Shown here piece after piece: positions 22,185 to 56,390 of a stretch of 64,000 nucleotides of DNA. The notes beneath the pieces are model-generated. The model made no database searches and was not told the DNA's origin. It saw only the letters and a list, made by a program, of their open reading frames with translations. The DNA lies in IMG/VR virus record IMGVR_UViG_3300036766_002285. The stretch is one strand, 5' to 3'. Positions within the stretch are counted from its first letter, which is position 1; the number at the start of each line of letters is the position of its first letter. This stretch comes from an uncultured virus (IMG/VR IMGVR_UViG_3300036766_002285). Lineage: Duplodnaviria; Heunggongvirae; Uroviricota; Caudoviricetes. A program made the position numbers and the translations under genes.

Positions 22185-22204
22185 AAGAATATCTAGGACG
22201 GCTA

Positions 22205-22645: not shown

Positions 22646-22827
22646 ATAGTTAGTATTTCTATATAACAATACAGTATGTTTTATAGCAGGTTTATCTTTT
22701 AGGGAGTCACTAGCCCTATGGCCCTAAATTTCCACCATATTTTAGTTCAATATTCAGACCATCTTAATTACTTGTTTATGTCTCATTAGCCCGTACAGTA
22801 TAAAAGACACAAAAGGAGCTTTACCTT

Positions 22828-23088
22828 ATGAAATTCTTTGGAAAAAAAGACTCGAATACAGCACCGGGCGCAACGGCATCCCCAGTGAATAAAACACCCC
22901 TAGCTGCTGATGCTGCTGAAAAGTGGTCAGTAGGTAGCGATGTGCGTGATATAGCTCACGATAAAAGAGTATCTATAGAGGAAGCAGTTTCTATATTTGC
23001 TGAAAATAGCAATCTGAGTAAAGATGAAATTACTGAATGTGTAAGCTTATATGACAGCTGGGCCGTCGAACCAGATCTATTTTCATAA
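22828..23088 (+). CDS. Hypothetical protein, paralogue of 23211
   Basis: DVRDIAHDKRVSIEEA...ECVSLYD. Confidence 0.7.
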   Translation: MKFFGKKDSNTAPGATASPVNKTPLAADAAEKWSVGSDVRDIAHDKRVSIEEAVSIFAENSNLSKDEITECVSLYDSWAVEPDLFS

Positions 23089-23210
23089 AGGAGAAACGAT
23101 ATGACAGCTAACAAGCTATCTACACAGTATTTTCTAACATTTAGACATTTTCAGTTTTTTGCGCCCGCCCTTGCGTCCCGCACAATAATATCAGACCACG
23201 GAGGTTTATC

Positions 23211-23429
23211 ATGGGTATAGGAAAAGAGCTTCGGCTTAATGCGTTAGCTTCGATGTCTGATAAAGAAAAACGTAAAATAGGTAAAGATATACGAGACATC
23301 GAACGCCACAAAAGAGTATCTTTAGAAGAAGCCATTGCTTTATATTCCAAAGATACTTTTTTTAAAGACAATCTTTTAAGTTCTGATCAGCTCGCCGAAT
23401 GCGTGAATTTTTATGATAGTTCTAATTAA
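23211..23429 (+). CDS. Hypothetical protein, paralogue of 22828
   Basis: DIRDIERHKRVSLEEA...ECVNFYD; GGAGG SD. Confidence 0.7.
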   Translation: MGIGKELRLNALASMSDKEKRKIGKDIRDIERHKRVSLEEAIALYSKDTFFKDNLLSSDQLAECVNFYDSSN

Positions 23430-23444
23430 CCTTGGAGGTTTATA

Positions 23445-23918
23445 ATGATAAATATTTGTGAAGAGTATACCAAGGATTATACCAAAGAAGAGATCACTTT
23501 AGAGTTAGCTAATAATCCAAAGCTAACCCCAAGAGAGCTAGAGATCCTTGAAGCTCTAGCTGCTTGGGCCGATTGTTTGACTAAAAACTCAAGCAGACAA
23601 GAAGCAGTAGATGAGTTTGCAAAATGGTTGAATGCTAACGTTCCTTCGGCCCCGGCTGGTGTTTATCCTCTTAGTTTTAGCTTTTCTGAGTCTTTACGTC
23701 ACGAACTCTTTGTTTGGGGACAAATTGCAGGCAATTCACTTTGGGACAGTGAAGTACTCCAAGAAATGGTTGTAGCCAGAGCCGCCGGCGATTCTGATAA
23801 AACTCAAGCTGCTTGGCTTAAATTAAACAGAGAGTGGCGAGTGCTAGCAATGCTGCAGCCAGGAGATGAGCAATATTTCTGGAACAATGTAATGCGTGCT
23901 GCCAACAAACTGCCATAA
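23445..23918 (+). CDS. Tandem family protein 1 of 3
   Basis: YTKEEI...WxQIxGNxLWDSE motif shared by three adjacent genes. Confidence 0.75.
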   Translation: MINICEEYTKDYTKEEITLELANNPKLTPRELEILEALAAWADCLTKNSSRQEAVDEFAKWLNANVPSAPAGVYPLSFSFSESLRHELFVWGQIAGNSLWDSEVLQEMVVARAAGDSDKTQAAWLKLNREWRVLAMLQPGDEQYFWNNVMRAANKLP

Positions 23919-23981
23919 TACCAGTTACTTATAATCCAGCCACTATAGTATTTAGTAAGCAGCTACTTAAGGAGAAATGTT

Positions 23982-24422
23982 ATGGATGAAGAATACACAA
24001 GAGAAGAAATTGAACTGTATTCTAGTACTGGATATTGGAAAGGAAAAGATGAGGTATTATTAAAATGGGCAGATCTTATAGCTGAGAGTTCGAGTCGCAC
24101 TCAGGCTGTAGACACCTTCGCAAGATGGCTACATGCCCGCGATCCTGCGTCCAGTTTAGACAGTTGGCCGCTCGGTGTATATGTATCCCAAACCCTATCT
24201 CAAGAGTTGTTTACTTGGAGTCAAATTCCAGGTAACAAACTTTGGGATAGCGAAGTACTTCAAGAAATGATCGCAGCTAGAGCAGCTGGAGACCCGGGTG
24301 CGACCCAAACAGCTTGGAATAAACTTAGTAAAGAATGGCGGATATTAGCACTTAAGCAGCCAATCGATGAACAGCGGTTCTGGGGCAAGGTGCACGTAGC
24401 TGCGTCCAGGCTAATTTCGTAG
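23982..24422 (+). CDS. Tandem family protein 2 of 3
   Basis: WSQIPGNKLWDSEVLQEM. Confidence 0.75.
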   Translation: MDEEYTREEIELYSSTGYWKGKDEVLLKWADLIAESSSRTQAVDTFARWLHARDPASSLDSWPLGVYVSQTLSQELFTWSQIPGNKLWDSEVLQEMIAARAAGDPGATQTAWNKLSKEWRILALKQPIDEQRFWGKVHVAASRLIS

Positions 24423-24484
24423 CTTTGTTACTTGCAGGATCGCTACAACAGTATACAGTGAACAACTACTCAAGGAGAAATGTG

Positions 24485-24979
24485 ATGGAAAAAGAGTACA
24501 CAAAAGAAGAGATTTTATCTCGCAGTGTTGAGGGAAGTGAACAATTCACGAAGCGAAATTGGAGAAATATTCAAACAGATACTTCACAGCTAAAGTGGGT
24601 TAGTTGCTTAGAAAGTGCTCCGGATCGTAATGCCGCAGTTGTCATGTTCGCTAAATGGTTGGACAAAGAAGTACTTGAGCAGCTTCAGTCTGAAAGAAAT
24701 GCTTGGCAAATAAATGCTGTACTAGATATGTCGCATTTATTAGTTCAAGATCTGTACAGATGGGCACAAATTGCTGGCAACAATTTATGGGACAGCGAGC
24801 TGCTACAAAAAGCTCAAGTTGCCAGACAGACTAATGACAGAGCTTGCGTGCTAGACTGTGTAGCCAACATGAGCAGAGCTTGGAGATTAATGCTTGTACG
24901 CCAAGAATCAGCTGAAGCGGCATTTTGGCAAGCAACTATAGAAGAACGTATAGCCGATAAGAAAACAAATTTAGAATAA
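24485..24979 (+). CDS. Tandem family protein 3 of 3
   Basis: AAGGAG SD before MEKEYTKEEI; WAQIAGNNLWDSE. Confidence 0.75.
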   Translation: MEKEYTKEEILSRSVEGSEQFTKRNWRNIQTDTSQLKWVSCLESAPDRNAAVVMFAKWLDKEVLEQLQSERNAWQINAVLDMSHLLVQDLYRWAQIAGNNLWDSELLQKAQVARQTNDRACVLDCVANMSRAWRLMLVRQESAEAAFWQATIEERIADKKTNLE

Positions 24980-25012
24980 TTATGAACTATATAAAAATCT
25001 TGCCTTAGACAC

Positions 25013-25462
25013 TTAAGGCTTAACTATTCTAACAGGCCGCACGTACATTAGTTCACTTTTCTCCTCATAACAATGATCCTCATAGAGATCCCCACCATAA
25101 CCCACAACGAACTGGAAAAAATGTGCCTCATTTAGACCGGTACTATTAGCACTCCAGTACTTGTCATCATAATCTGCATCCATGTCCCCTATGTCCGCTA
25201 AGGGGTCACTATTATCGATAGCTGTAAAATTTCCAAGACCCATAGAATACACTTCATACCAGGCTGCCACTAAAATTTCGATGGTTGGTAAAAACCAATC
25301 TGTATGGCCATTTCCAGCATAATTTATGCAAGCCTGTCTGGCGTCTTCCCAGTTTAACTTGGGGTCACTATCTGTACCATACCAAGTATATGGAGCCAAT
25401 TCGATTTTACCCCATTTGTAGTCACTAAAAATTTTAAATATTATATTTTTATTCTGGCTCAT
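25013..25462 (-). CDS. DUF1566-like (C-type-lectin-fold) protein
   Basis: DWFLPT..L / YWS / VRPVR. Confidence 0.75.
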   Translation of the reverse strand: MSQNKNIIFKIFSDYKWGKIELAPYTWYGTDSDPKLNWEDARQACINYAGNGHTDWFLPTIEILVAAWYEVYSMGLGNFTAIDNSDPLADIGDMDADYDDKYWSANSTGLNEAHFFQFVVGYGGDLYEDHCYEEKSELMYVRPVRIVKP

Positions 25463-25937
25463 ACTTGCTCCTCATTATCTTGAACTATTCTAACTGGACG
25501 AACGAACATTAATTCGCTTTTCTTATCATGATTATCATCATCTTCGACATAGTCAAACGTACAAAAAGCAGCTTCATCTATACCACGCTCAGTGCTGCTC
25601 CAATAGCAGTCATTAATACAAACAAAAGTTGCACCGCAGGTAGTCACATTCTCAAAAATCGAAAATTCTCCAAGTTCGTTTCTGTGGAGTTCACTCTGCA
25701 TTGCTGTTAAAACATCAATACTTGGTAAAAACCAATCTTTATTTCCATCACCAGTATAGCTATTGCAAGCCGACACAGCATCCTGCCAGCTTAAGGCGGG
25801 GTCACTGGCGGTACCGAACCAGGTATTGGGAGCAACCTCAACTTGCCAGCTATCACGCCTATCACTTAAAAATTTAAATATTATATTTTTATTCTGGCTC
25901 ATACTTGCTCCTCATTATCTTGAACTATTCTAACTGG
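25433..25937. repeat. 65-bp perfect direct repeats (25433-25497 and 25873-25937) spanning gene junctions
   Basis: Both encode the ...PVRIVQDNEEQV*/MSQNKNIIFK junction. Confidence 0.85.
25459..25902 (-). CDS. DUF1566-like protein
   Basis: DWFLPSID / YWSSTE / VRPVR. Confidence 0.75.
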   Translation of the reverse strand: MSQNKNIIFKFLSDRRDSWQVEVAPNTWFGTASDPALSWQDAVSACNSYTGDGNKDWFLPSIDVLTAMQSELHRNELGEFSIFENVTTCGATFVCINDCYWSSTERGIDEAAFCTFDYVEDDDNHDKKSELMFVRPVRIVQDNEEQV

Positions 25938-26336
25938 TCGCACATACATCAGTTCACTTTTTTTGGCATAATTATCATCATCGGAACCAAAATCGAACAT
26001 AACATATGCAGCTTCTTCTATACCACGTTCAGTACAGCTCCAGTACTGAACGTCAACAGAATTCTCATCATCAATGACACCCGTTTCAATGACCGTAAAT
26101 TCTCCAAGGTTGCTACAATGAAGCTCATCTTGCATTGCTCTTAAAACATCAATACTTGGTAAAAACCAATCTCTATGACCCGCCCTAGTATAGTCAGCAC
26201 AAGCTTGTTTGGCGTCTTTCCAGTTTAATTTAGGGTCACTAGAACCACGAAACCAAGTACAGGGAGCAACCTCAACCTGGTAATTGGTTGTATAGTTGCT
26301 TCGAAATTTAAATATTATATCCTTATTTGATCCCAT
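25899..26336 (-). CDS. DUF1566-like protein
   Basis: DWFLPSID / YWSCTE / VRPVR. Confidence 0.75.
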   Translation of the reverse strand: MGSNKDIIFKFRSNYTTNYQVEVAPCTWFRGSSDPKLNWKDAKQACADYTRAGHRDWFLPSIDVLRAMQDELHCSNLGEFTVIETGVIDDENSVDVQYWSCTERGIEEAAYVMFDFGSDDDNYAKKSELMYVRPVRIVQDNEEQV

Positions 26337-28151: not shown

Positions 28152-28409
28152 ATGTTTGGAAAAAAGAAGAAAGAAGATAAAATAGTAGACGATGCCTTCA
28201 AGAAAGCTTTCAATACCGCGCCAGTTTATCATGTCGGTGAAACCGTCTGGGTAAGAATTGATCCGCCCCAACAGCCGCAATTAGCAGTTGTGCTGGATAT
28301 TGATGTTTATGATAAATGGCATGTATTAGTAGAGATTAAAGATACCGGTAAAGAAGTATGGGTAGGTAGCATAGATTCTCCAGAAGTGACGAAGTCTTTT
28401 ATTTGTTGA
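28152..28409 (+). CDS. SH3/KOW-like protein; its stop codon lies inside the tnpB right end
   Basis: AAGGAG SD; YHVGETVWV; TGA 28407-28409 is within the TTGA element end. Confidence 0.65.
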   Translation: MFGKKKKEDKIVDDAFKKAFNTAPVYHVGETVWVRIDPPQQPQLAVVLDIDVYDKWHVLVEIKDTGKEVWVGSIDSPEVTKSFIC

Positions 28410-28530
28410 CATCCTCCTCACAGTTTTAACAACTATAAGGATTCCAGTTACTATTGTAGTAGTAACTGAGGTACGCGGCTCACAGGCCTGGATAACTCCA
28501 AGCCTCCCCGCGAAAATACGACGTGTCCCG
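28406..28530 (-). ncRNA. Putative omegaRNA 3' scaffold / right end, lineage A copy 1
   Basis: CCTCAGTTACT...AGTAACTGGAATCC-hairpin-GGAGGATGTCAA is shared by three copies and similarity ends exactly at TCAA. Confidence 0.75.
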
Positions 28531-29620
28531 CCGCAATATTTTTAGCTGCATTCACATCAGCGTTCTCTGCATGTTCGCACAATAAACACTCAAATTCCGC
28601 TTGGCTCTTGCGGTTCTTGGTGTCAGTGAAAGTGCAAACATTGCAGCGTATAGATGTGTTTACAGGGTTTATTTTTTCTAAACGGTCACCTATTTTATCT
28701 TGGAATCTTCTGTCACATCGACCCCAACCATTCTTTCGAATTTCTCTATTTAATCCAGACTTGGCTTTAACGTTCTTACCTGGGTTAGTAAGAGTACCTT
28801 TGGCAGATTTGGTCATATTCTTTATTTTTAGATTCTCGATTCTGATTATATCAAAGCTGCCAGCAAGTCTGGTAGTCAGTTTTTCAACTGCATCGATGCT
28901 GCGGTTTACTCTACGATGTTCAAGTTTGCTAATCAGTAGCTTGGTTTTCTTGTGCCTGTTAGATCCAGGTTTTTGACGGGACAGTTTACGTTTAAGGTGT
29001 AACATCCTTTGTTGTTCTACTGCACTAAGTCCAGGAATTTTGACCACTTCACCAGTACTCATTGTAAATGACTGGGCTACACCTCTATCTATACCCACAA
29101 TTTTTCCATTACCTGGAGCTGGGATAGGTTTAGGGATTACTGCAAATGCTATCCACCAGCATCCAGCTCGATCTAAAGTTACTCGATATGACTTAATGGC
29201 ACCTGGGTTTCTGGTCCAACGCCAGTCTACCCAACCTATTTTGGGGATATTTACTCTAGCACGTTTACGTGACATGCGCTCAAAGCGTTTTGCAGCAAGG
29301 CCAACAATACGGAAACCTTCATTGTGGCCAGCTTTACGAAAGGTTGGATGCCCATGAGTACCATTATGCCAGTTTCTAAATCCTTGATCCAAATCTCGAA
29401 GAGCTTGCTGTTGTACTATATAAACACCTTCTTTGAGCCAGGAGTCTTTACGAACCTCTGTAAGTTGAGCAGACTGGGCATTGTAATTAGGGGTAGGACC
29501 GAACGCTTTACGATACATATTGCGTTGCTCTAGACCCATGTTGTATACGTAACGAGCATGACCACAATGTTCTAATAGAAGAATTTCTTGAGTTTTGGTA
29601 GGATAGAGACGGAATTTCAT
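28451..29620 (-). CDS. tnpB: IS200/IS605-type TnpB, lineage A copy 1 (intact)
   Basis: MKFRLYPT HTH; RuvC GIDRG / IRIENL / NADVNAA; Zn finger. Confidence 0.95.
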   Translation of the reverse strand: MKFRLYPTKTQEILLLEHCGHARYVYNMGLEQRNMYRKAFGPTPNYNAQSAQLTEVRKDSWLKEGVYIVQQQALRDLDQGFRNWHNGTHGHPTFRKAGHNEGFRIVGLAAKRFERMSRKRARVNIPKIGWVDWRWTRNPGAIKSYRVTLDRAGCWWIAFAVIPKPIPAPGNGKIVGIDRGVAQSFTMSTGEVVKIPGLSAVEQQRMLHLKRKLSRQKPGSNRHKKTKLLISKLEHRRVNRSIDAVEKLTTRLAGSFDIIRIENLKIKNMTKSAKGTLTNPGKNVKAKSGLNREIRKNGWGRCDRRFQDKIGDRLEKINPVNTSIRCNVCTFTDTKNRKSQAEFECLLCEHAENADVNAAKNIAAGHVVFSRGGLELSRPVSRVPQLLLQ

Positions 29621-29685
29621 GTAGTTATAGTATCGGTACTAGTTTTCCTAATAGCAGTCTGGCCAGTCTAGCTAATCCAAAACTG

Positions 29686-30215: not shown

Positions 30216-30683
30216 TCATCCATCCATTCTATAGTCTTGTCTACGCGCATCTTCAACATCATCATTAAGTTGCACAATTGTGTCTTTAAACATTTTGAGC
30301 TGCACTCGCGCCCTATCGCCGATATCATCGTGGTCAGAACCATGTTCTTCTGAGCTTCTAATGTATTCCTCAATACACTGCACAATCGCGCTGCTTTCTG
30401 GAACTCCTTGTTCTTTCTCAAATTTTGCCACAGTTTCTGCTTCTTCTAGATCTATTTGTGCTTGTGACGGTCTTTCTATGAGCTCAAGTTCGTCTTCGTC
30501 AAATGCATCGCGCATTATAGAAGTCCCCATCGGCAAATCAACGCTGATATTCTTTTTGTCACCCCGCCACGCCTGGTATGCATCAGTTACGATACCTACA
30601 ACATCATATCTTGAATTATTTTTATATTTTAACGGCCGCACCCTGTCTCTTACTTGAAATTTTCTTGATGTATTACTGCTCAT
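30216..30683 (-). CDS. Hypothetical protein with SH3-like N-terminus
   Basis: KFQVRDRV...FDEDELEL; ATG 2 nt after the tnpB right end. Confidence 0.65.
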   Translation of the reverse strand: MSSNTSRKFQVRDRVRPLKYKNNSRYDVVGIVTDAYQAWRGDKKNISVDLPMGTSIMRDAFDEDELELIERPSQAQIDLEEAETVAKFEKEQGVPESSAIVQCIEEYIRSSEEHGSDHDDIGDRARVQLKMFKDTIVQLNDDVEDARRQDYRMDG

Positions 30684-30685
30684 CT

Positions 30686-30815
30686 TTGACATCCTCCATA
30701 TTATCTACCATTGTGGCGATTCTAAGGATTCCAGCTACTATTGTAGTAGTAACTGAGGTTTGCTGCTCACAGGCTTGGGTAAACCTAAGCCTCCCCGCGA
30801 AAATACGACGTGTTC
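30686..30815 (-). ncRNA. Putative omegaRNA 3' scaffold / right end, lineage A copy 2
   Basis: Same scaffold ending GGAGGATGTCAA; terminal hairpin differs. Confidence 0.72.
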
Positions 30816-31906
30816 TGCTGCGATATTCTTTGCTGCATTCACATCAGCGTTCTCTGCGTGTTCGCACAATAAACACTCAAATTCCGCTTGGCTCTTGCGG
30901 TTTTTGGTGTTTGTATAAGTGCAAACATTACAGCGTATAGATGTGTTTACAGAACTTACTTTTTCTAAACGGTTACCTACTTTATCTTGAAATCTTCTGT
31001 CAGATCGACCCCAGCCATTCTTTAGAATTTCTCTAGTTAATCCAGACTTGGCTTTGACATTTGTGCCTGGATTTAAGATAGTACCTTTAGCAGATTTGGT
31101 CATATTCTTTACTTTAAGGTCCTCGATTCTAATTATATCAAAGCTGCCAGCAAGCCTGGTGGTCATTTTTCGACTGCATCTTTACAACGGTTTATTCTAC
31201 GATGCTCAAGTTTGCTAATCATTAGTTTGGTTTTCTTGTGATTGTTAGATCCGGGTACTTGGCGGGACAGTTTACGTTTAAGATGTAGCATTCTCCTCTG
31301 TTCGACTACACTAAGTCCAGGAATTTTAACCATTTCACCTGTACTCAATACAAATGACTGAGCTACACCTCTATCTACACCTACAATTTTACCGTTACCT
31401 GGAGCTGGAATAGGTTTAGGGATGACTGCAAAAGATATCCACCAGCGGCCAGCCCGGTCTAAAGTTACTCGATATGATTTAATATCACCTGGATCACAGC
31501 TCCAACGCCAATCAACCCAACCTATTTTAGGAATATTTACTCTAGCACGTTTACGATTCATGCGCTCGAAACGTTTAGCTTCTTTACCTATAATACGGAA
31601 ACCTTCATTAAGGCCGGCTTTACGAAAAGTTGGGTGCCCGTGAGTACCTTTCCACCAATTTTTAAATGCTTGATCTAGATCACGGAGAGCTTGTTGCTGT
31701 ATTATAGCAGAACCCTCTTTAAGCCAGGAATCTTTTCGGGCTTCTGTAAGCTGCGCAGACTGAGCATTATAGCTAGGAGTAGGACCGAACTCTTTACGAT
31801 ACATGTTGCGTTGCTCTAAACCCACGTTATATACGTAACGAGCATGTCTACAATGCTCTAGGAGAAGAATTTCTTGGATTTGAGTAGGATAGAGACGAAA
31901 TTTCAT
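30738..31906 (-). pseudogene. tnpB: TnpB lineage A copy 2, 1-bp frameshift
   Basis: ORFs 31163-31906 and 30738-31166 join if one base is restored at the A5 run (T5 at 31166-31170). Confidence 0.88.
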
Positions 31907-32052
31907 GTATTAACAGTATCGGTACTTAATAGCTATAACTAGAATACTATAGTAAGATATTGTGCTATAAATAATAGCGTAAATGCCAGTATCAGTTGTT
32001 TGAAGGGAAGTCCTGCTGAAAATAGGAGATTTGGTAAATGCATGATCGCTGT

Positions 32053-33640: not shown

Positions 33641-33710
33641 CAAGGCGGATTCCTCTCAGCATAGTGTAATGCTTTATCGCCTACACATGCTAGGGGGCCG
33701 CCACTATTTT
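33641..33710 (+). ncRNA. Putative small hairpin RNA
   Basis: GGCGG/CCGCC, TTCCT/AGGGG, AGCAT/ATGCT and GTGTA/TACAC stems; TTGCTT-16-TACAGT upstream. Confidence 0.45.
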
Positions 33711-33773
33711 ATCATAATTATTGTAATATCTTGCCTATATAGCAATGTCCCACACAATATAGAGTATATTATT

Positions 33774-34829
33774 ATGATCCAACATCAAATTAAACTCAGA
33801 CTTAAATCAAAACAAGAAAAACAGCTGAACGATTGGCTGTTTTATCTTACCGGAGTCTATAACTGGGCTGTCCGTAAAATTGAGCAAGATGCTAAATATG
33901 GTATTTATTACACGCGCTACGATTTCATAAATCTTCTCGCTGGCCACGGTAAAAAGATGGGTATCCCAAGCCATACTATGCAGGGTATATTAGATACGGT
34001 CTTCACTGCATGGCAACGCTGTTTCAAAAAACTTGGTGGTAAACCTAAACTGAAAAGTAATCGCCGTAAACTTAATTCCATACCATTCCCAGACCCTATT
34101 AGTGCTCCTGTTGGTAATTACATTAAATTGCCTGGTATAGGTCAAGTACGTTTTCATAAACAAACTCTTCCCGTAGGTAAAATTAAATGTGGTCGAATAA
34201 TTAAACAGGCTTCCGGTTGGTATTTATGCTTATTTATTGACGCCAAAAGAGCTCCTATTGAACGTAAAGTTTTTGGTGAAATAGGTATCGACCCTGGATA
34301 TATAAACCTGCTAACCTTATCTACCGGGGAGAAGATTCCTCATCCAAAAGAACTAGAGAACTCTGCTATACGTCTAGGACAAGCTCAACGTGGTGGCAAT
34401 ACTAAACTAGTAGCTCGGATTAGTGAAAAGATCAAGAACCAACGTAAAGATCGTAACCATAAGACATCTTATCGGTTGGTACAAGAAAATTCTTTAATAG
34501 CATTCTCTAAAGATAACCATATAAAGATAGCAAAAAAGTTAGGAAAGTCTGTGGCTTCAGCAAGTCACGGGGAACTTCGTAAACAACTCGCATACAAGAG
34601 CCTTGCCGGCGGTACGCGCTATATCGAAGTTCCTTCTAAGAATTCCACTCGTACATGTTCAACCTGTGGGGCGCTATCTGGCCCTACAGGCTTTAGCATG
34701 CTGACAGTAAGGCATTGGAAGTGTGATTGTGGAATCACTCATGACCGCGATATTAACGCGGCTGTGAACACTCTAATGCTGGGCCTGGTGCAGGCCTCGA
34801 ATTTTAAAGAGTTATCTCTAGTTAGGTAA
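33774..34829 (+). CDS. tnpB: TnpB lineage B copy 2 (intact frame, atypical RuvC-II)
   Basis: Start MIQHQIKLRL by alignment with copy 1; GIDPG, IAFSKDN, CSTCG, HDRDINAA. Confidence 0.9.
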   Translation: MIQHQIKLRLKSKQEKQLNDWLFYLTGVYNWAVRKIEQDAKYGIYYTRYDFINLLAGHGKKMGIPSHTMQGILDTVFTAWQRCFKKLGGKPKLKSNRRKLNSIPFPDPISAPVGNYIKLPGIGQVRFHKQTLPVGKIKCGRIIKQASGWYLCLFIDAKRAPIERKVFGEIGIDPGYINLLTLSTGEKIPHPKELENSAIRLGQAQRGGNTKLVARISEKIKNQRKDRNHKTSYRLVQENSLIAFSKDNHIKIAKKLGKSVASASHGELRKQLAYKSLAGGTRYIEVPSKNSTRTCSTCGALSGPTGFSMLTVRHWKCDCGITHDRDINAAVNTLMLGLVQASNFKELSLVR

Positions 34830-36655: not shown

Positions 36656-37633
36656 TTAGTTTTCCCGTACTTTTTGAGATAGAACCTTAGCTAAATTCTC
36701 TATAGCCGTTTTTTGCTTAGAAGTTAATTCACTAGGAACAACAATATCTACTGTCACAATTAAGTCACCAAAAACCTTATTTACTACTACTCCTTGTTTT
36801 CTTACGCGATGTCTGGACCCAGTCTGCGTTCCTGGTGCCAGTCGCAGGGTTACTCCAAGTCCATCCAAAGTTGGAACTTTTATATCTCCACCTAAAGCTG
36901 CCTCTGTAAAAGTGATAGGCACGCGCACTTTAAGATTTAAACCTTCTCGCTCAAATATTGGATGCGGCATTACTTTACACACTATATAGAGATCTCCAGG
37001 CTTCCCCCCATTATGGCCAACTTCCCCCCGGCCCGCTACTTTTATTCGTTGTCCGTCATCAACTCCAGCCGGGACCCGTATTTTCATATTTTGGTTACTA
37101 CTTGTCTTTCCGGTCCCCTTGCATGCTTTACATAAGCGTTCTCCTGTATTTGAACTAATGCCAGATCCGTGGCAGATACTGCATTGAGTATCAAATGCGA
37201 TCTCTAAGGTATTTAGCCCATGTATGGCATCAACAAAATCTAAAGTCACAGCTACTTCTATATCGCTGCCACGTATAGCACCAAAATTGTTACGTGTTTG
37301 CGCACCAAACAGATGAGAAAATAAGTCACTCATTTCATCACTATCCATATTAAAATTACTGGTTCTTGGTCCAGAAGTTCCGTTGCCATTATAGGGACTA
37401 TATCCAATTTGGCGAGCCTCGTCATATTCTTTGCGTTTCTCTGCATTACCCACCACATCATAGGCTTGACTGATTTCTTTGAACTTATCTTCGGATGCAG
37501 TTTTGTTAGGATTTACATCTGGATGAAACTTTTGGGCCAATTTCCTGTATGCTTTGGTTATTTCTTTATCAGTAGAATTGCTACTAACTCCAAGTATTTT
37601 ATAGTAGTCTTTTTCTAACCATTCACGCTGCAT
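36656..37633 (-). CDS. dnaJ: Chaperone DnaJ with shortened zinc-finger region
   Basis: [12 protein letters not shown], only two CxxCxGxG motifs, C-terminal domains. Confidence 0.93.
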
Positions 37634-37635
37634 AA

Positions 37636-38118
37636 TTATCCCCGCACTTTCACGAGCGCTGCTCGCAGTACTTGGCCGCGAAAGCAGTAACCTGGTCTTA
37701 GAATTTCAGTAATTATACATTTGTCTGTTACGCCGGGCTCATGAATCATAGCCTGACTATAAGTCGGATCAAAAATTTTCCCTTTCAGATCAAGTGTCTC
37801 AAGACCCTGGGTTTGCAATGCTCCTAGTAACAATGCTCTGATTGGCTCTGCCTCAAGATTTCCATGAACAATTGCAGCATCAAGGGCATCTAAGGTTGGC
37901 AGCAAAGATTCAATGGTTCTCCCAGACCCTCGATCTATCTCCAGACCAGTCTGGCTAGCTATTCTTTTACGATAGTTCTCAAAGTCTGCTTGCAGTCTGA
38001 GGATACAATCACGTAGATCGTCTCGCTGCTTTAGCAGCTCTTCAGTGCTTTCTGTAATCGGGGCATTTTCTTGAAGATCTATAAATCCGCGTTCAAAAAT
38101 TTCTGCTTGTTCATCCAT
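37636..38118 (-). CDS. grpE: Nucleotide exchange factor GrpE
   Basis: [21 protein letters not shown]...LRAALVKV. Confidence 0.93.
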
Positions 38119-38136: not shown

Positions 38137-39954
38137 CTATTTTTCTTCAACTATTTCAGCATCTACAATATCATTATCCGTGGCCTTTGGATCTGGCCCG
38201 CTTGCTGTATTCTGACTGGCTGTTTCATAGAGTTTACGACCAAATTCTTGGCTGGAAGCTCTAAGTTTTTCGACCACATTTTTTATCGCAGCAGTTTCAT
38301 TACTATCTAGAACCTTTTTAAGTTCCGCACAAAGCTCTTCTACTGGTGTTTTGTCAGCCTGTGATAGTTTCTCACCAGCTTCACGGAGAGTTTTTTCTGT
38401 CTGATACAGCAACGAATCTGCACTATTGCGAACTTCGGCCATCTCTCTGGCCTCGTGATCCTCTTTTTCATGCGCTTGTGCATCTTTGACCATTTTATCT
38501 ATAGCATCTTTAGATAACGAAGATTGTCCAGTAATAGTCATGGACTGTACTTTAGATGTGGCAAGATCTTTAGCCGACACATGCACTATACCATTAGCGT
38601 CAATATCAAAAGTGACTTCAATCTGGGGAACTCCTCTAGGTGCTGGGGGCAGGTCAGTTAAACTAAATTTTCCAAGAGTCTTATTGAAACTAGCCATTTC
38701 GCGTTCTCCTTGTAACACATGTATCTCAACTGAAGGCTGCAGGTCATCAGCTGTAGAAAATATTTCAGATCGCTTAGTTGGAATAGTGGTATTACGTTCA
38801 ATAAGTTTAGTCATGACTCCACCTTTAGTTTCAATACCTAAAGATAATGGCGTGACATCCAATAACAAGATATCTTTAACATCTCCTCTAAGCACTCCCG
38901 CTTGTACAGCCGCTCCTATAGCAACTACTTCATCTGGGTTTACGGTACGGTTCGGCTCACGGCCACCCAAGAGTTGTACAAGTTCACTTACCGCAGGCAT
39001 TCTGGTAGATCCGCCAACTAATATAACATGGTCTAATGCACCTTTTGATAGTTTAGCATCCGATAAAGCTTGTTCAAAAGGTTTACGGCAGCGCTCGAGA
39101 AGATCTATCGTGAGCTCTTGAAATTTTGCCCGAGATAGAACCTCATCTAGGTGTAGCGGTCCCGCCGCTGTTGCTGTGATAAAAGGCAGATTTATTTGTG
39201 TTTGCATGGTTTGTGATAGTTCAATCTTTGCTTTTTCAGCTGCTTCCTTAAGTCTTTGTGCAGCCATTTTATCTGTACCCAAGTCAATACCGTGGGCGGA
39301 TTTAAATTGTTGTACTAGCCAATCTATAATGCGCTGGTCCCAATCGTCACCACCGAGATGAGAATCCCCGTGGGTACTTTTTACTTCAAATATACCATCA
39401 CCTATTTCTAAAACGCTAACATCAAAAGTTCCACCACCCAAGTCAAATACTAAAATAGTTTCGTCTTTTCCTTCCTTGTCTAGACCGTACGCAAGAGCAG
39501 CCGCTGTAGGTTCGTTAATAATTCGTAGCACCTCGAGGCCCGCAATTTGGCCCGCTTCTTTGGTAGCTGTACGCTGTGCGTCATCAAAATATGCAGGTAC
39601 TGTAATTACAGCTTGGGTTACTGGTTCTCCTAAGTAAGCTTCAGCATCCCGTTTTAGTTTCATTAAAATTCTAGCAGAGATTTCTTGAGGGGTATATTTT
39701 TTCCCATCAATATCGTCAGATTTCCAACTCTCTCCCATATGGCGCTTTATACTGCGAAATGTTCTACTCGGATTAGTAATTGCTTGTCGTTTGGCTACCT
39801 CTCCTACTAAAACTTCTCCAGCTTTTGAAAAAGCCACCACCGATGGAGTGGTTCTTGCCCCTTCTGAGTTCGGTATTACAATAGGTTCTCCGGCTTCTAA
39901 AACAGATATCACTGAATTAGTAGTTCCCAGGTCAATTCCAACAGCTTTGCTCAT
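38137..39954 (-). CDS. dnaK: Chaperone DnaK (monoderm/actinobacterial type)
   Basis: [14 protein letters not shown]; short N-terminal subdomain; [10 protein letters not shown] tail. Confidence 0.98.
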
Positions 39955-40135
39955 TATGTTTCCTCTCAAAGATACGTTTTTGTGTTTATGGTATATATAC
40001 AATAGTTCCCAGTCGCATGCGAATTGCAATCATTTAAAACACAAAAAGACCCACCAAATCCTTTATTTTACAGAACCACACAAATGTGCCAGTAGTCACT
40101 AAAAGAACAAAACATCAAACTCTTAAATACTGTAA

Positions 40136-40331
40136 TTAAGGCAGGGGTCTAATTATCTTTGCCAGTAGTTCGCTACCACCAACTTTAACACTCAACTCTC
40201 CACTGTGCGTGGTCATAATTGTTCCACTAACACCAATTAAGTCGCCTCGGTCCCAGTCACCAGTCCTAGCAAAAGTCTCATCTCCAACAACCGCTTGTGA
40301 AACAAATAGTTGAATTTCACCCGACTGGTCC
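40136..40331 (-). pseudogene. lysS: Fragment of lysyl-tRNA synthetase anticodon-binding OB-fold domain (not in ORF track)
   Basis: DQSGEIQLFVSQAVVGDETFARTGDWDRGDLIGVSGTIMTTHSGELSVKVGGSELLAKIIRPLP*; no start codon. Confidence 0.82.
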
Positions 40332-40460
40332 TTGACATCCTCCCTGTAGCCTTTAACAACTATAAGGATTCCAGCTACTAAACTAACAGTAACTGAGGTT
40401 CACGGTTCACAGACCCGGTTAGCACCAAGTCTCCCCGCGCGCTTACGACGTGTCCCGCTA
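40332..40460 (-). ncRNA. Putative omegaRNA 3' scaffold / right end, lineage A copy 3
   Basis: Same scaffold ending GGAGGATGTCAA. Confidence 0.75.
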
Positions 40461-41548
40461 CAATATTCACTGCTTGCATTCACATCAGCGTTATCTGTGT
40501 ATTCACACTTAATACAGCTAAAAACCGCTTGGCTCTTGCGATTCTTAGCTGAAGTGTACTTACACTCACTACAACGCCTGGATGTGTTTACAGGATTTAT
40601 TTTCTCTATACGACCAGAAGCTTTATCTTCAAACCTACGGTCAGAGAAGCCCCAGCCGTTTTTTAGAATTTCTCTAGTCAAACCTGACTTAGCTTTAACA
40701 TTAGTGCCTGGATTTGCAAGAGTACCTTTAGCAGATTTAGTCATATTCTTTATGTTCAGATTCTCGATACGGATTAAATCAAAGCTCCTAGCAAGCCAGG
40801 TAGTTAGTTTTTCAACACAATCTTTACAACGGTTGATTCTACGATGCTCTAGTCTATTAATCATTAGTTGAGTTTGCTTATAATGATTAGATCCTTTTAT
40901 CTGTTTGCTAAGTTTACGTTTAAGTTGTAATGACTTCTTCTGTTCTTTCATACTAAGTCCAGGAATTTTAACCATTTCACCTGTACTCATTGTAAATGAT
41001 TGGGTGATACCTCTATCTATGCCGACAATTTTGCCATTACCTGGAGCCGGGATAGGTTTAGGAATTACTGCAAAAGCTATCCACCAGCGTCCGGCACGAT
41101 CTAAAGTTACTCGATACGATTTAATGGCACCAGGATTTCTAGTCCAGCGCCAGTCTACCCAACCTATTTTTGGGATATTTACTCTAGCACGTTTACGTGA
41201 CATGCGCTCAAAACTTTTTGCTTCCTTGCCCACAATACGAAAACCCTCATTTTGACCGGCTTTACGAAAAGTTGGATGTCCGTGGGTACCTTGAAACCAG
41301 TTTTTAAATCCTTGATCCAGATCGCGCAGGGCTTGTTGTTGTACTGTTGCTGATCCATCTTTAAGCCAGGAATCTTTACGAGCTTCTGTAAGTTGTGCGC
41401 ATTGAGCATTATAGTTGGGAGTGAGTCCGAACACTTTACTATACATATTGCGTTGCTCTAAACCCATGTTATATACGTAACGGGCATGGTTACAGTGCTC
41501 CAGTAGAAAAATTTCTTGAGCTTTGGTAGGATAGAGACGAAATTTCAT
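40400..41548 (-). CDS. tnpB: TnpB lineage A copy 3; a 1-bp insertion near 40474 changes only the C-terminal tail
   Basis: GIDRG / IRIENL / NADVNA retained; canonical tail (AVNIVAGHVV...PQLLLV*) continues in another frame to 40378. Confidence 0.92.
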   Translation of the reverse strand: MKFRLYPTKAQEIFLLEHCNHARYVYNMGLEQRNMYSKVFGLTPNYNAQCAQLTEARKDSWLKDGSATVQQQALRDLDQGFKNWFQGTHGHPTFRKAGQNEGFRIVGKEAKSFERMSRKRARVNIPKIGWVDWRWTRNPGAIKSYRVTLDRAGRWWIAFAVIPKPIPAPGNGKIVGIDRGITQSFTMSTGEMVKIPGLSMKEQKKSLQLKRKLSKQIKGSNHYKQTQLMINRLEHRRINRCKDCVEKLTTWLARSFDLIRIENLNIKNMTKSAKGTLANPGTNVKAKSGLTREILKNGWGFSDRRFEDKASGRIEKINPVNTSRRCSECKYTSAKNRKSQAVFSCIKCEYTDNADVNASSEYCSGTRRKRAGRLGANRVCEP

Positions 41549-41749
41549 GTAACATTAGTATCGGTACTTAGTATTCAGAGTTTAATGAAAACTATACTAC
41601 CAATCAAACAAAGATTATAATTCACTATTACTGTCAATAGAAATAAGTGCCTAAAAGTATCATTATAGCACTATATCAGTATGGAGAAAAAATGCCAAAT
41701 GGTCTAAAAGAACTCACCCTCAAACTACCAGTAAGTATGAAACATATCT

Positions 41750-42346
41750 ATGAGTAATGTTAATAATAAAGCATCTTCGGGGTTTCTATTAACACTGTTT
41801 AAAAGGTTTTTTATAATATTCACAGTACTCACTCTTGTATCTTCGCTTTCTAACATCTATCTCGGATCAGCCTGGTCTAAAAATATAGTCAAATATAAAT
41901 ATACAGCAGGCATGTATAATGATGGTGATCTCACGTACGAGCAAGCTCCCCCAGCTGGTGGACCGCATAATTCAGTTGCTCAAAATTGTGGTATATATGC
42001 TTTGCCTCTTTTAGATGAAACTGTGGTTAATAGCTTAGAACGCGGAGCTGTATGGATAACGTATAAGCCAGATAAAGTATCTTATATAGATATTGTAGTT
42101 TTAGCCAGACAGTATCAGCGCAATAAGTTTGTGATAGTTTCTCCATATCCTACACAAAGTAGTCCTATTATACTTTCTGCATGGAATGCACAGCTTTCTG
42201 TAAACAGTTCCTCAGATTTTCGGATAAACAAGTTTGTTGATTTTTATGCTAACAGCCCAGACGCTCCTCAACCAGACGCTTCTTGTACAGAGGGCATTGA
42301 TTCGAGTATTTATCAGCTGCTTACACCTCCAGAACCCGACGTTTAA
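41750..42346 (+). CDS. DUF3105-like membrane-anchored protein
   Basis: PPAGGPH...NCGIY; SLERGAVWITY; SPYP...LSAW. Confidence 0.8.
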   Translation: MSNVNNKASSGFLLTLFKRFFIIFTVLTLVSSLSNIYLGSAWSKNIVKYKYTAGMYNDGDLTYEQAPPAGGPHNSVAQNCGIYALPLLDETVVNSLERGAVWITYKPDKVSYIDIVVLARQYQRNKFVIVSPYPTQSSPIILSAWNAQLSVNSSSDFRINKFVDFYANSPDAPQPDASCTEGIDSSIYQLLTPPEPDV

Positions 42347-42431
42347 GCTTGAAAGCCTAATATAATAAATATTATATTAGTGGCTTAAGTTTCAAGCTTG
42401 TCTATATTTGCTACGTACAATACTAATAACA

Positions 42432-43817
42432 ATGTTTACATACAAGCATACCTCAAGATTGGCTAATATTATTTCTATTGCCAAAAAATATCTAGTCCTT
42501 AGCGTTATTATAGGACTGTTCGGCATTCCAACCACAATTGCTAGCGCAACGAATTTCATCGCCCTGCCTAGCTGTACTAATGATGGTTTGAATTGTAAGC
42601 TCGGAGGTGTTGGGCCGGCTGGAGGTCTAATATTTTATGATGCGGGATCCCTACGATGGTGGGGTCGTTTTCTAGAAGTACCAACTAATCAAAAAGTAAC
42701 TCCCAGCAGCCCTTGGGGCGATGGTGATTCCATATATACTCAAAACACATCTGGCCGCAGTGTTGAGGCTCAACGTATTTTCGCTAAGTCTATTGGGACT
42801 GGAAAAATAAATACCGCCCAAATACTTGCCGCAACTGATACCTGGATCGCAAGCTCCGCTCAGCTAACAGATGCTTATCTCCAAAATGGTTTTGACGATT
42901 GGTTTTTGCCGTCAAAAGATGAGCTAAATGCCCTATACGATTATTTAAAAATCCAAAAACTCGTATTACCCGGAATTGCGGGGTCTCCAACCTGGACTTC
43001 ATCTGAGGCGAGTGGCTCTTTTGCTTGGTATCAAGAATTTCGTGACGGTACCCAGTTCACAGACGCTAATGGTATTATACCAGGGTCGCCTGGAAATAAG
43101 CAAACTTCTATGAGTCCAAAACATGTCGGATCAAATTTTGTTCCCATGGGCTTTAAAACTATTCCCATTCGAGCTTTCCCGCAAGGCTCGGGTGTAGTGC
43201 CAAATTATATTCCAACTAATTTAACTACAAATTCTGCGTGTACTCAAGATTTATCTTGTAATATGGGAGACGTCGGTCCGGGCGGTGGAATAGTATTCTA
43301 TGATGCAGGATCACATCAGCCCTGGGGTCGGTATTTAGAGGTAGCTCCCGCTGCTTGTGAAATTGTTGGGGTACCTTGGAAGCCTAATAATGCGGTTGTT
43401 CAAAAAATTATATTATACAGAGACATTCCTAAGGGATTTCTAGCCCTACAACAACGCCTATTAGCTAAAGCTCTCGGTATGGGTCAGACCAATACCCAGC
43501 TCATAGTAAACAGTTACGGCAGTAAGTTTACATATGCAGCACAAGCAGCAAATGACCTAATATGTATCACGGACGACTGGTTTTTGCCGACAAAAGACGA
43601 ACTGGATTTAGCTTTTAATAATCTAAAAGCTTTAGATCTTCCTCTAGGAGATTTTGATAAAGGATATTATTGGACTTCTAGTGAATACAATAACGAAACC
43701 ACCTGGACACAGTATTTTAAAGATGGTCAACAGTTTGATAGGGTCAAAACTTTGTTTGCTAACAAAACGGGACCCATGCGTCCATTTAGGGTGCGTGCTA
43801 TTCGTGCTTTCGGTTAA
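42432..43817 (+). CDS. Secreted protein with two DUF1566-like domains
   Basis: Twice G.GPxGGxxFY...DWFLPxKDEL...WTSSE...IRAF. Confidence 0.8.
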   Translation: MFTYKHTSRLANIISIAKKYLVLSVIIGLFGIPTTIASATNFIALPSCTNDGLNCKLGGVGPAGGLIFYDAGSLRWWGRFLEVPTNQKVTPSSPWGDGDSIYTQNTSGRSVEAQRIFAKSIGTGKINTAQILAATDTWIASSAQLTDAYLQNGFDDWFLPSKDELNALYDYLKIQKLVLPGIAGSPTWTSSEASGSFAWYQEFRDGTQFTDANGIIPGSPGNKQTSMSPKHVGSNFVPMGFKTIPIRAFPQGSGVVPNYIPTNLTTNSACTQDLSCNMGDVGPGGGIVFYDAGSHQPWGRYLEVAPAACEIVGVPWKPNNAVVQKIILYRDIPKGFLALQQRLLAKALGMGQTNTQLIVNSYGSKFTYAAQAANDLICITDDWFLPTKDELDLAFNNLKALDLPLGDFDKGYYWTSSEYNNETTWTQYFKDGQQFDRVKTLFANKTGPMRPFRVRAIRAFG

Positions 43818-49314: not shown

Positions 49315-50127
49315 TTAACCGCAGCCTTCCGACCACCCAGCATCACCATAATCCCAATTCACTTCATCAACACCATCGCCACCATCTAACATGTCATCGC
49401 CGCCTCCGCCGGTAAGGGTATCAATGCCCTTACCGCCATGAATAACATCAGGACCACCGCCGCCCTCTAGCATATCGTTACCAGCTCCACCACTGAGGTC
49501 ATCCCCGCCCAAGTCGCCATTTTCGATGTCATCGCCCGCACCACCATTAAGAGTGTCATTACCACTGTCTCCATTTAGTTCATCATTACCATCCTCGCCC
49601 TGGAGACTGTCATCGCCCGCATCACCATTGATAGTATCATTACCAAGTCCGCCTCTAAGGTCATCATCACCCAAGCCACCATTTTCGATATCATCGCCAG
49701 TGCCGCCATTAATAACGTCGTCACCAGCGCCCCCATCTAGAGTATCATTATCACCCCCACCATTAAGTTGATCGTTATTCATACCGCCGTCGATAATGTC
49801 GTCACCAAGTCCGCCAAAAACGATATCGTTTCCGGCTTGACCGTAGACATTATCGATGCCAGCACTTCCACAAACTCGATCATTTCCAGAACCAGCAAAG
49901 ACATAATGGATTCCAGATCCACGAACAACAATCACATCAGATCCCGCAGTCCCCTTGATAGTGGCTGCACTTGATACAATGGTTGCTTGCACTCCTACAC
50001 AACTAGCCGCCGGAGAAGCGTTAGTCACAGATGATGTTAAGAGTACTGCAGGAACAAAGAAAAAACATACGATACCAGAAATAGTTAAACGTCGTCTGGT
50101 AAATATATGAGAAGGTTTTGTTTTCAT
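49315..50127 (-). CDS. Secreted RTX-type Ca-binding repeat protein
   Basis: Many GGxGxDxLx nonapeptides after a signal/TM segment. Confidence 0.88.
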   Translation of the reverse strand: MKTKPSHIFTRRRLTISGIVCFFFVPAVLLTSSVTNASPAASCVGVQATIVSSAATIKGTAGSDVIVVRGSGIHYVFAGSGNDRVCGSAGIDNVYGQAGNDIVFGGLGDDIIDGGMNNDQLNGGGDNDTLDGGAGDDVINGGTGDDIENGGLGDDDLRGGLGNDTINGDAGDDSLQGEDGNDELNGDSGNDTLNGGAGDDIENGDLGGDDLSGGAGNDMLEGGGGPDVIHGGKGIDTLTGGGGDDMLDGGDGVDEVNWDYGDAGWSEGCG

Positions 50128-50128
50128 A

Positions 50129-51670
50129 CTAGTTATTAAGAATATCTTGCACTTCAGGATCTGCAGCATTTATAAATCCAGGACTCAAACTATTTTTCTG
50201 CTGGTCCGATAGAAGGCCAGCTTGTTCAACTGTGATACCTTGACCTGAAGCTGGTTTCAATAGTTTAAGTTGCTGTGCGCTTAAAGATGCAAACGCTTCA
50301 GGATCTAATGCTTCTAGTTGAGTAGCACTAATAACGGTCATAGTTGCTGGTTTCACTAAATCTAGCTGGAACGGGTCTAAACCAGACATAGCATCCGGAC
50401 TAAGTTGTCCTACTTGTGTAGGCTTTAGTGCTCCAAAAGCTTCTGGTGATATGTTTCCAACCTGATCTCCGCTCATAGCACTAAAGGCAGTTCCTGGCAT
50501 TAAAGCAAGTTGTTTTTTACTCATAGCTGCAAATACTTCAGGAGACATAGCATCTATTTGGCCCGGCTTAAAACCAGCAAATGCGCTAGGTAGTAAAGCT
50601 CCCATTTGTCCCGCAGTCATTGTACTAAACGCATCGGGAGATAATGCCCCAATTTGTGTAGGTTTAAATCCGGCAAACGCGCTGGGTGGCATGCTACCAA
50701 ATTGTTCTCCACTCATAGCACCAAACGCTGAAGGTGACATAGCGCCCAGCTGACCTTTGTTCATGGCTTCAAATACTCCTGGAGGTAATACATCAATCTG
50801 TCCAGGTTTAAATCCGGCAAATGCATTAGCAGGCATAGCACCAAATTGTGAGGCATTCATGGCACTAAACGCATCTGGAGATAACGCACCCACCTGGGTA
50901 GGTTTAAATCCAGCAAACGCCCCAGCCGGCAATGCCGACATCTGATCTCCACTCATAGCACTAAAAGCTGTAGCAGGCATGCCATTCAATTGATTTTTAT
51001 TCATACCACTAAAAGCTTCAGGTGATAGTGCATCAATTTGTCCTGGTTTAAATCCGGCAAACGCGCTAGGAGGAAGTGCTCCGATTTGTCCACCATTCAT
51101 AGCTCCAAATGCTTCAGGAGATAGCGCCCCAATTTGATTTGGTTTTAGCGTACCAAATGCCTCTGGCGACAAGTTACTTACCTGGGTACCATTTAAAGAC
51201 CCAAATGTTTGAGGCGTCATAGCTCCTAGTTGAGTACCGGTCATACCTGCAAATGCTTCAGGAGCCAAGACTCCTATCTGTCCTGGTTTAAATCCGGCAA
51301 ATGCTGCTGGATTTAATGCAGCAACCTGATCCGGGGTAAGTTGTGATACAGCACCAGGAGTAAAGTTACTAACTTGTCCGGGGTTAATGTTTACGAACTG
51401 GCCGGGATTTACTGTTGCTATATTACCAGGATCAAAAATAGGATTAAAAGTTGTACCGCCCGGAGTAAATCCCGGAACTGTAGTTACTGTTGTAAACCCC
51501 GGAACCGTAGTGCCTGTCGGAGAACCAGGAACCGTAGTACCAGACGGTGGCGGATCTTCGTTTACATGCAAACCGACTACACTAGCAGAAACCGATTGTA
51601 CCAAAAATAGAGGAACAGCTACAAAAAATAAAATTATAAACGATTTAACAGTAGTTAGAGAAATTTTCAT
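50129..51670 (-). CDS. Secreted solenoid-like protein with 12-aa/24-aa repeats
   Basis: Repeats such as ALSPEAFGAMNGGQIG and ALPPSAFAGFKPGQID; N-terminal GTTVPG repeats. Confidence 0.8.
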   Translation of the reverse strand: MKISLTTVKSFIILFFVAVPLFLVQSVSASVVGLHVNEDPPPSGTTVPGSPTGTTVPGFTTVTTVPGFTPGGTTFNPIFDPGNIATVNPGQFVNINPGQVSNFTPGAVSQLTPDQVAALNPAAFAGFKPGQIGVLAPEAFAGMTGTQLGAMTPQTFGSLNGTQVSNLSPEAFGTLKPNQIGALSPEAFGAMNGGQIGALPPSAFAGFKPGQIDALSPEAFSGMNKNQLNGMPATAFSAMSGDQMSALPAGAFAGFKPTQVGALSPDAFSAMNASQFGAMPANAFAGFKPGQIDVLPPGVFEAMNKGQLGAMSPSAFGAMSGEQFGSMPPSAFAGFKPTQIGALSPDAFSTMTAGQMGALLPSAFAGFKPGQIDAMSPEVFAAMSKKQLALMPGTAFSAMSGDQVGNISPEAFGALKPTQVGQLSPDAMSGLDPFQLDLVKPATMTVISATQLEALDPEAFASLSAQQLKLLKPASGQGITVEQAGLLSDQQKNSLSPGFINAADPEVQDILNN

Positions 51671-51851
51671 AAGGAACACCTAAAATTTATAGAATAAATA
51701 TTATTGTATAATTCAGCAATGCTGTAGAGCATGGGTATCCTTCCTTATGTGTTGGTAATAGTGTATAGTATGTATTTACATAACTGATGCAACTAGGTTT
51801 ATATCCTAATTTTTGTTATTTATAGACTATTTGTTGATAATTATCGGTATC

Positions 51852-56027: not shown

Positions 56028-56390
56028 ATGCTTGAAGTTACAGAAGATTTAATATTTACACACAAAACAGGCAAGTATCAAGCAGCCCCGGCTGGTTGGC
56101 ATGGACATATCACAGATCCTATTATGACTTGGGATCATGCGATTACTGCTGCTAGTAAATACGTTGGTGCCAGCTATCATAAATGGTACCTACCCGACTT
56201 AGGTGTTCTCAATAGCATGTATGAACAACTCCATAAAAATGATATAGGGGATTTTTGTGATCAGGCTTACTGGAGCTCTGAAATTGACCCCGTGTCACAA
56301 GACGGCTGGTGTCAATATTTTGATTACGGTATCCAATATAATAATAGTAAAAAACTCGAACACTATGTGCGTCCCGTACGTATTATTTAA
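56028..56390 (+). CDS. DUF1566-like protein
   Basis: WYLP...L / YWSSE / VRPVR; AGGAGG SD. Confidence 0.75.
   Translation: MLEVTEDLIFTHKTGKYQAAPAGWHGHITDPIMTWDHAITAASKYVGASYHKWYLPDLGVLNSMYEQLHKNDIGDFCDQAYWSSEIDPVSQDGWCQYFDYGIQYNNSKKLEHYVRPVRII

Follow-up and report, generated by a model that had tools for sequence, protein, structure and literature searches.

A tnpB-only IS200/IS605-type element adjoining a truncated lysS remnant, the presumed source of its guide

Introduction

IS1341-type elements consist of tnpB between IS605-like ends, lack tnpA and occur as several diverged copies per genome. The logic by which TnpB-encoding elements use their flanks has been described for the ISGst elements of Geobacillus stearothermophilus, which possess a cognate TnpA and have been examined in experiments. 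According to that report, the guide is by rule taken from the DNA that flanks the element at its right end. What TnpB targets is a TAM followed by this flank, in other words, the "donor joint" that is re-formed when the element is excised; the role of the guide is to direct the cutting of this joint, so that the element gets copied back (Meers et al., bioRxiv 10.1101/2023.03.14.532601). The same report mentions that excision also takes place at boundaries located past the native right end, by which extra flanking sequence may be captured. Another related system is ISDra2 of Deinococcus radiodurans, with a TnpB and a right-end omega-RNA (Karvelis et al., 2021, PMC8612924). The ISDra2 TnpB carries the D-E-D triad of the RuvC domain.

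Here we analyse an element that encodes a TnpB of the same protein architecture and whose right end adjoins a fragment of a lysyl-tRNA synthetase (LysRS) gene, lysS. The window, by which we mean the whole analysed stretch of DNA, comprises 64,000 nucleotides. The original prediction held that the sequence in the guide position of this element is derived from lysS, and that the guide would be aimed either at a stand-alone tRNA-binding OB gene or at the lysS gene of the host.

Results and Discussion

The Element, Its Ends and Its Paralogs

The element (hereafter copy A) is an IS200/IS605-type tnpB-only element, which occupies approximately positions 40332..41570 on the minus strand, with the left end at ~41567-41570 and the right end at 40332, as judged from blastn searches, end alignments and the ends of contigs. 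Two paralogs were found on the same strand: copy B (28406..29647), 79.3% identical to copy A over 1245 nt according to blastn, and copy C (about 30686..31931; blastn match 30723..31931), 79.5% identical and containing a broken gene. The blastn similarity of copy A to both paralogs stops at the limits of copy A, and the end alignments concur. All three copies end alike in ...GGAGGATGTCAA and diverge as soon as this motif ends, so the trait of IS200/IS605 elements, shared ends and unrelated flanks in several copies, is displayed by copies A, B, and C; the 12-mer GGAGGATGTCAA occurs three times in the window versus 0.23 occurrences expected. In copy A, the terminal TCAA corresponds to positions 40335..40332, and the flank begins at 40331. 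The likeness of the left ends begins ~21 nt before the ATG codon, at (T)AAGTACCGATACT. The bases before GTACCGATACT are ACTAA in copy A, AACTA in copy B, and ATTAA in copy C (three copies only, one of them deviating), and this comparison makes ACTAA at 41568..41572 (minus strand), located 5' of the left end, a candidate TAM. The right end is predicted to contain two conserved stem-loops (z=-2.56 for copy B only), while the hairpin predicted at the left end is weak, with a stem of only 4-5 bp and z between -1.05 and +0.72.

The Y1 (HUH) transposase TnpA is not encoded in copy A, nor did any of the 67 ORFs of the window match Y1_Tnp in the Pfam scan; therefore, the element is non-autonomous at best. 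By the description given above, copy A is similar to the IS1341 type (tnpB, IS605-like ends, no tnpA, several diverged copies).

The limits of the element are also visible in an independent assembly, that of run X1, a public sequencing run whose contigs contain 95% of the sampled words of the region. Other members of the family present in this run cease to resemble the window precisely at 40332 and 41570 (two contigs in each case). The depth is ~40 in the flanks but 100-400 within the element. Among the 53 records of the run that were aligned, 13 were at least 99% alike, none fell between 95 and 99%, eight were 90-95% alike, and 32 were below 90%.

Altogether, seven tnpB-type ORFs are present in the 64 kb (77..901, 4840..6225, 28451..29620, 30738..31906, and 40400..41548 on the minus strand; 9597..11225 and 33669..34829 on the plus strand), and they belong to at least three unrelated lineages with 21-28% identity between lineages; one of them is broken into two pieces, and another is short, with 274 aa. 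A separate observation concerns copy C, where an ORF of 158 aa (30216..30692, minus strand), for which Pfam gave no match, starts at an ATG within the right-end motif GGAGGATGTCAA, which also resembles a ribosome-binding site. The right end of the element might supply start signals to downstream DNA.

The tnpB Gene of Copy A

The tnpB gene of copy A (40400..41548, minus strand) encodes 382 amino acids followed by a TGA stop (40402..40400). In the Pfam scan its product matched HTH_OrfB_IS605, OrfB_IS605, and Cas12f1-like_TNB (PF12323, PF01385, and PF07282, i.e., the HTH, the RuvC-containing OrfB, and the zinc-ribbon TNB domains), all above the gathering scores. It scored 199.8 bits against NCBIfam NF040570 (cut-off 100) and 167 bits against IS200_TnpB versus 82.6 against IS607_TnpB, both of the latter being below the strict "exception" cut-offs of NCBIfam. 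The catalytic triad expected from the first reading of the sequence is indeed present as D178/E262/D355: D178 and D355 are invariant in an alignment of five TnpBs of the window, and E262, which sits in IRIENL, was aligned against the structures of ISDra2 TnpB. The protein aligned over its whole length with the ISDra2 TnpB chains 8bf8, 8exa, and 8h1j (residues 3-359 to 9-365, E=2.4e-23), though the similarity is distant. By family assignment, the copy A protein would thus be a TnpB-type RNA-guided endonuclease of the IS200/IS605 type. Its last 25 residues differ from the usual ones, the tail DVNASSEYCSG... replacing the canonical DVNAAKNIAAG..., because the gene has one extra base near the 3' end, just after the D355 codon, in comparison with copies B and C. 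The promoter and terminator scan gave fewer promoter-like sites than were found in shuffled sequences, and its outcome is therefore not informative.

Like in ISDra2, a conserved and putatively structured region lies in copy A between the tnpB 3' end and the right terminus, and the guide position is just outside the element. Unlike ISDra2, copy A has no tnpA, a very short left end, a right end of its own (...GTCAA), and YTAA as the candidate TAM.

The lysS Remnant

The sequence adjoining the right end comprises 192 nt (40330..40139, minus strand), that is, 64 codons of the OB domain of LysRS with no start codon. It translates as (K)DQSGEIQLFVSQAVVGDETFARTGDWDRGDLIGVSGTIMTTHSGELSVKVGGSELLAKIIRPLP, its frame runs from DQSGEIQLFVS to LLAKIIRPLP, and a TAA stop (40136..40138, minus strand) follows directly after RPLP, as had been noticed originally, and marks the end of the lysS homology. 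The position of the TCAA end at 40332, which this frame adjoins, was confirmed by the comparison of the three copies and by the contigs of run X1. The 64-residue fragment matched Pfam PF01336 with E=1.5e-6 (profile positions 21-70 of 75) and the NCBIfam model for lysine--tRNA ligase with E=8e-15 (positions 76-139 of 488), and was 64-68% identical, in ungapped alignments, to nine LysRS proteins, all of which go on as DKW(H/K)GL after RP(L/M)P, where the relic stops. The residues invariant in these nine relatives are kept in the relic. More broadly, its 64 residues align without gaps to the OB domain of class II LysRS of Ilumatobacteraceae and other Acidimicrobiia with 58-70% identity. A search of the protein collection returned 42 candidates, 30 of them at E<=0.001, the best being 70% identical; several of the best matches are named lysine--tRNA ligase of Ilumatobacteraceae.

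The fragment had been regarded as the class II LysRS anticodon-binding domain. Its origin from the OB domain of LysRS holds, but the domain is not whole, approximately the first 20 profile positions of the N-terminal OB anticodon-binding domain being missing. In contrast to class II lysS, the relic also lacks a start codon (no ORF of at least 40 aa beginning with ATG, GTG, or TTG is listed in its frame) and the catalytic domain: the relatives carry PF00152, while no class II catalytic core was found in the whole 64-kb window. The N-terminal half of lysS, likewise predicted to be absent beyond tnpB, was not recovered, since tblastn of five full-length LysRS against the window gave only 40139..40336, the next best match having E=0.061. 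The relic is a dead lysS remnant rather than a gene. It could not serve as a stand-alone domain because the first strands of the OB fold are absent.

The proposal of a stand-alone tRNA-binding OB gene as the guide target is not supported by these data, given a relic devoid of both a start codon and the first OB strands. Nor was any similar fragment found elsewhere. The matches to the relic in genome_contigs were distant LysRS genes with at best 58% identity, those in metagenome_contigs were also distant LysRS genes with at best 50% among the matches listed, and the window's own contig did not appear among the matches to either set. The proteins reached 70%, all of them being ordinary LysRS or pieces thereof. 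In run X1, no second contig covered the relic body (40013..40225) at a likeness of at least 80% among the matches listed, and the relic is present there as a single copy, with a depth of 40.3 that equals one contig. The depth is slightly higher in the bin 40226..40296 within the relic (48.9 versus 40.3 in the adjoining bins).

The Presumed Guide

The segment 40332..40560 (minus strand), comprising the 3' end of tnpB and the sequence up to the right-end boundary, is strongly conserved in the three copies and represents a putative omega-RNA scaffold, for which RNAalifold predicted 64 pairs, five of them with compensatory changes; Rfam gave no match at the gathering score in the window and none at E<=1 around the right end. 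By analogy with the family, the 20 nt immediately outside the right end, GGACCAGTCGGGTGAAATTC (40312..40331, minus strand), would serve as the guide. The right-end boundary, together with the LysRS matches, supports the claim that the DNA in this position is derived from lysS. Since TnpB guides are whatever DNA flanks the right end, a lysS-derived guide is an ordinary outcome of such a junction.

A perfect target of this guide with a plausible TAM was found neither in the window, where the 20-mer has no other site at up to three mismatches, nor among the matches listed for genome_contigs, metagenome_contigs, and the protein collection, nor in the related lysS loci. The comparison of guide sites covered 38 loci with a LysRS match. 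In lysS of the five genomes nearest to the host, the site has 5, 6, 7, 8, and 10 mismatches of 20; the lowest number belongs to the nearest relative, G108, and all five of its mismatches fall within the first 12 nt. The codon at guide positions 5-7 encodes Q (CAG) in the relic, while all 14 related LysRS considered (9 + 5) have R in this place (DR..), with mismatches at positions 6-7, inside the seed.

The only near matches to the 20-nt flank were lysS genes of Saccharibacteria (19 of 20 in L026, positions 5000-5019, and 18 of 20 in L008, L010, L024, and L025), and the coincidence extends to the choice of codons, yet the proteins are only 38-39% identical overall. We do not regard these genes as meaningful targets: the likeness ends after ~27 nt (20-24 of the next 71), and the upstream bases (...TTCG, ...TGCG) are unlike the candidate TAM. 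These near-matches are explained by the conservation of the peptide DQSGEIQLF and by the fact that the loci had been fetched through DQSGEIQL itself.

Affiliation of the Host and Divergence of the Relic

The DnaK protein encoded in the window is 81-82% identical to named proteins and 83% identical to the best of the 401 sampled genomes of the class, 388 of which gave a match (the tallies include the unpublished genomes G213, G255, G276, and G390, on which no conclusion depends by itself). This protein places the host in Acidimicrobiia, near Ilumatobacteraceae. Each of the five nearest genomes has one lysS, located far from dnaK and 58-66% identical to the relic; none of the five (0/5) gave a match to the copy A TnpB at E<=1e-10, a result that does not bear on the origin of the element. 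Exactly one lysS match to the relic was present in 115 of the 121 genomes of the family (a sample in which the unpublished G468 is counted in the tally only), the best being 69%.

For calibration, relatives whose DnaK proteins are 88-96% alike show 72-84% likeness in the LysRS stretch, while the window compared with its relatives shows 80-83% for DnaK and 58-66% for the LysRS stretch. The divergence of the relic therefore fits the expectation for an ortholog of this lineage. Its GC3 is 0.34, versus 0.28-0.34 for dnaK, grpE, dnaJ, and tnpB; the regions of the relatives have 50-55% GC. Because of the host-like GC3, the ortholog-like divergence and the retention of invariant residues, the relic looks like a recently truncated piece of the working lysS of the lineage, neither foreign in appearance nor long decayed. 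The protein collection includes the DnaK of this contig, but no LysRS more than 70% similar to the relic; this may weakly indicate that the host gene differs from the relic or is absent from the collection.

Genomic Neighborhood

On the relic side, the element is adjoined by dnaK (38137..39954), downstream of which are grpE (37636..38118) and then dnaJ (36656..37633), all on the minus strand; upstream of tnpB lies a divergent DUF3105 gene (41750..42346). In the four nearest genomes, a canonical HAIR-type operator (C/GTTGAGT-N7-ACTCAAG/C) is located 100-135 nt upstream of dnaK. No such operator was found within 260 nt upstream of dnaK in the window (39955..40215), where the upstream gene order differs as well: the genes preceding dnaK in four of four near relatives do not occur anywhere in the window. 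The lack of these genes and of the operator indicates that the area around dnaK was rearranged, and it may be that control by HspR has been lost in this heat-shock operon.

The surroundings are rich in repeat proteins (12810..26336, 42408..43817, and 56028..56390). They include several ORFs with the Lcl_C domain, three of them in tandem at 25013..26336, with pentapeptide-repeat ORFs also near, a 1236-aa RCC1/fibronectin protein at 16040..19750, and ALTTAQ-repeat and RTX-repeat proteins at 49315..51679. On the whole, the neighborhood looks like a variable island.

Origin of the Junction

We consider it probable that copy A is an ordinary element with a relic as its flank and, consequently, with an incidental guide. 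It would be one of several non-autonomous tnpB elements of an Acidimicrobiia genome, composed of tnpB and a putative right-end RNA scaffold and having no tnpA. In the past, an element of this family would have met lysS-derived sequence at a site ...YTAA|GGACC...; insertion after the YTAA motif in ...CTTAA|GGACC... would yield exactly the junction observed. The homologous site in lysS of G108 reads ...CTTAAA|GAT..., which fits a YTAA-type motif like the one 5' of the three left ends. The rest of lysS would then have been lost by rearrangement, in keeping with the altered gene order upstream of dnaK, or else the relic was carried along with the element. Transcription running past the right end would give an omega-RNA whose guide is formed by the initial 16-20 nt of the relic. 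Several points speak against this reading: the left end is very short (~21 nt) with a weak predicted hairpin, one of the three copies deviates in the candidate TAM, and Rfam gave no match. Moreover, an element landing in the only, essential lysS should kill the cell, and a second or transient copy of the gene is therefore required; no duplicate was seen in the 121 family genomes, each of the 115 matching ones having a single match.

A possible, though clearly less favored, explanation is the capture of the 3' flank. According to it, an element residing in lysS was cut at a wrong site ~200 nt past its true right end, after which the element and the relic were inserted as a unit (~40132/40136..41567), the recipient site being the loop of an intergenic palindrome; in this case the guide would be a "fossil" still aimed at the former lysS site. 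What hints at such joint movement is an imperfect inverted repeat, one arm of which (41570..41587) is flush with the left end, while the other (40113..40131) starts 5 nt past the stop of the relic; the arms pair in 16 of 19 columns, and the repeat was also detected in the repeat scan (as I15). When anchored at the left-end boundary, its score was reached in 5 of 2000 shuffles. However, the repeat was noticed post hoc, and an equal score was reached anywhere in 121 of 2000 shuffles. The absence of the N-terminal half of lysS next to the left end is in line with capture, as are the alternative excision boundaries that were reported past the native right end of the ISGst elements (Meers et al., bioRxiv 10.1101/2023.03.14.532601). 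On the other hand, the 3' end of the supposed unit (…CCTTAATTAC) has no exact TCAA motif of the right end, run X1 contains only one copy of the relic (depth 40.3), and a prior insertion in lysS is still required. In contrast to the experimentally tested ISGst elements, everything beyond the anatomy of copy A is deduced, and the captured-flank reading is drawn from this one imperfect inverted repeat. The inverted repeat is not a HAIR operator, its half-sites being in the wrong order, and the direct repeat D1 (40099 and 41704) was judged to be at chance level.

In an extended variant, which we regard as improbable, the element took up ~200 nt of lysS and carries a portable, hard-wired guide against the essential lysS of its own lineage, which would be tolerated only because either the relic or the gene later changed in the seed (the Q codon CAG versus an R codon in the relatives).

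Functional self-targeting, in which the guide would direct the copy A TnpB to the intact lysS of the host, as the original prediction had suggested, or of a competitor, is very unlikely in our opinion. The intact D-E-D triad, the YTAA-like motif before the site in lysS of G108, and the native-like state of the relic, owing to which the host gene may resemble it, speak in its favor. However, a perfect match of the guide was found in none of the sequence sets searched, the R codon of all 14 related LysRS places mismatches in the seed, and even the nearest relative has its five mismatches in the first 12 nt. Besides, strong selection is expected against the cutting of an essential gene, and the C-terminus of the protein is frame-shifted relative to the paralogs.

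There is similarly little probability that the locus is an assembly chimera, in which the flanks of two different family copies were wrongly joined, the missing N-terminal half being an artefact. The contigs of run X1 do break inside the element, and paralogs 90-95% alike do exist (8 of the 53 records); the assignment of both junctions to one copy rests on the assembly of the window. Nevertheless, the depths of the two flanks are equal (40.3 and 39.7). A 5012-nt contig (record 1) connects dnaK with the relic and continues for 75 nt into the element, with no difference from the window. A 17,414-nt contig (record 7) contains the left flank and extends over 387 nt of the element, which are likewise unchanged; since both junctions are crossed unchanged, we regard them as real. 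The 3' truncation of the relic and its junction with dnaK lie within the 5012-nt contig in any case.

Finally, expression of the relic, either as a stand-alone OB protein or as a C-terminal extension of TnpB through read-through of the TGA, can be dismissed almost entirely: the TGA (40402..40400) does share the frame of the relic, and 87 sense codons separate it from the TAA (40136..40402, minus strand), but the relic has no start codon, and ~20 profile positions are missing at the beginning of its OB fold. Copy B terminates in a different frame, still within the conserved right end, and the common frame of copy A, which results from the 1-nt insertion in its tnpB and had a chance of about 1 in 3 before counting 23 stop-free codons, is taken to be a coincidence.

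Implications

As it is known now, the locus is a clean textbook tnpB element, with its flank as the guide, beside a scrap of a pseudogene. If, however, the flank travelled together with the element, there would be TnpB guides that have ceased to reflect where their element is inserted, and captured flanks, if real, may represent a possible step toward guides uncoupled from transposition, as in the domesticated relatives of TnpB and in Cas12. Should the portable guide prove true, the locus would provide a natural example of a TnpB element that transports its own guide, and of self-targeting resolved by mutation of the seed.
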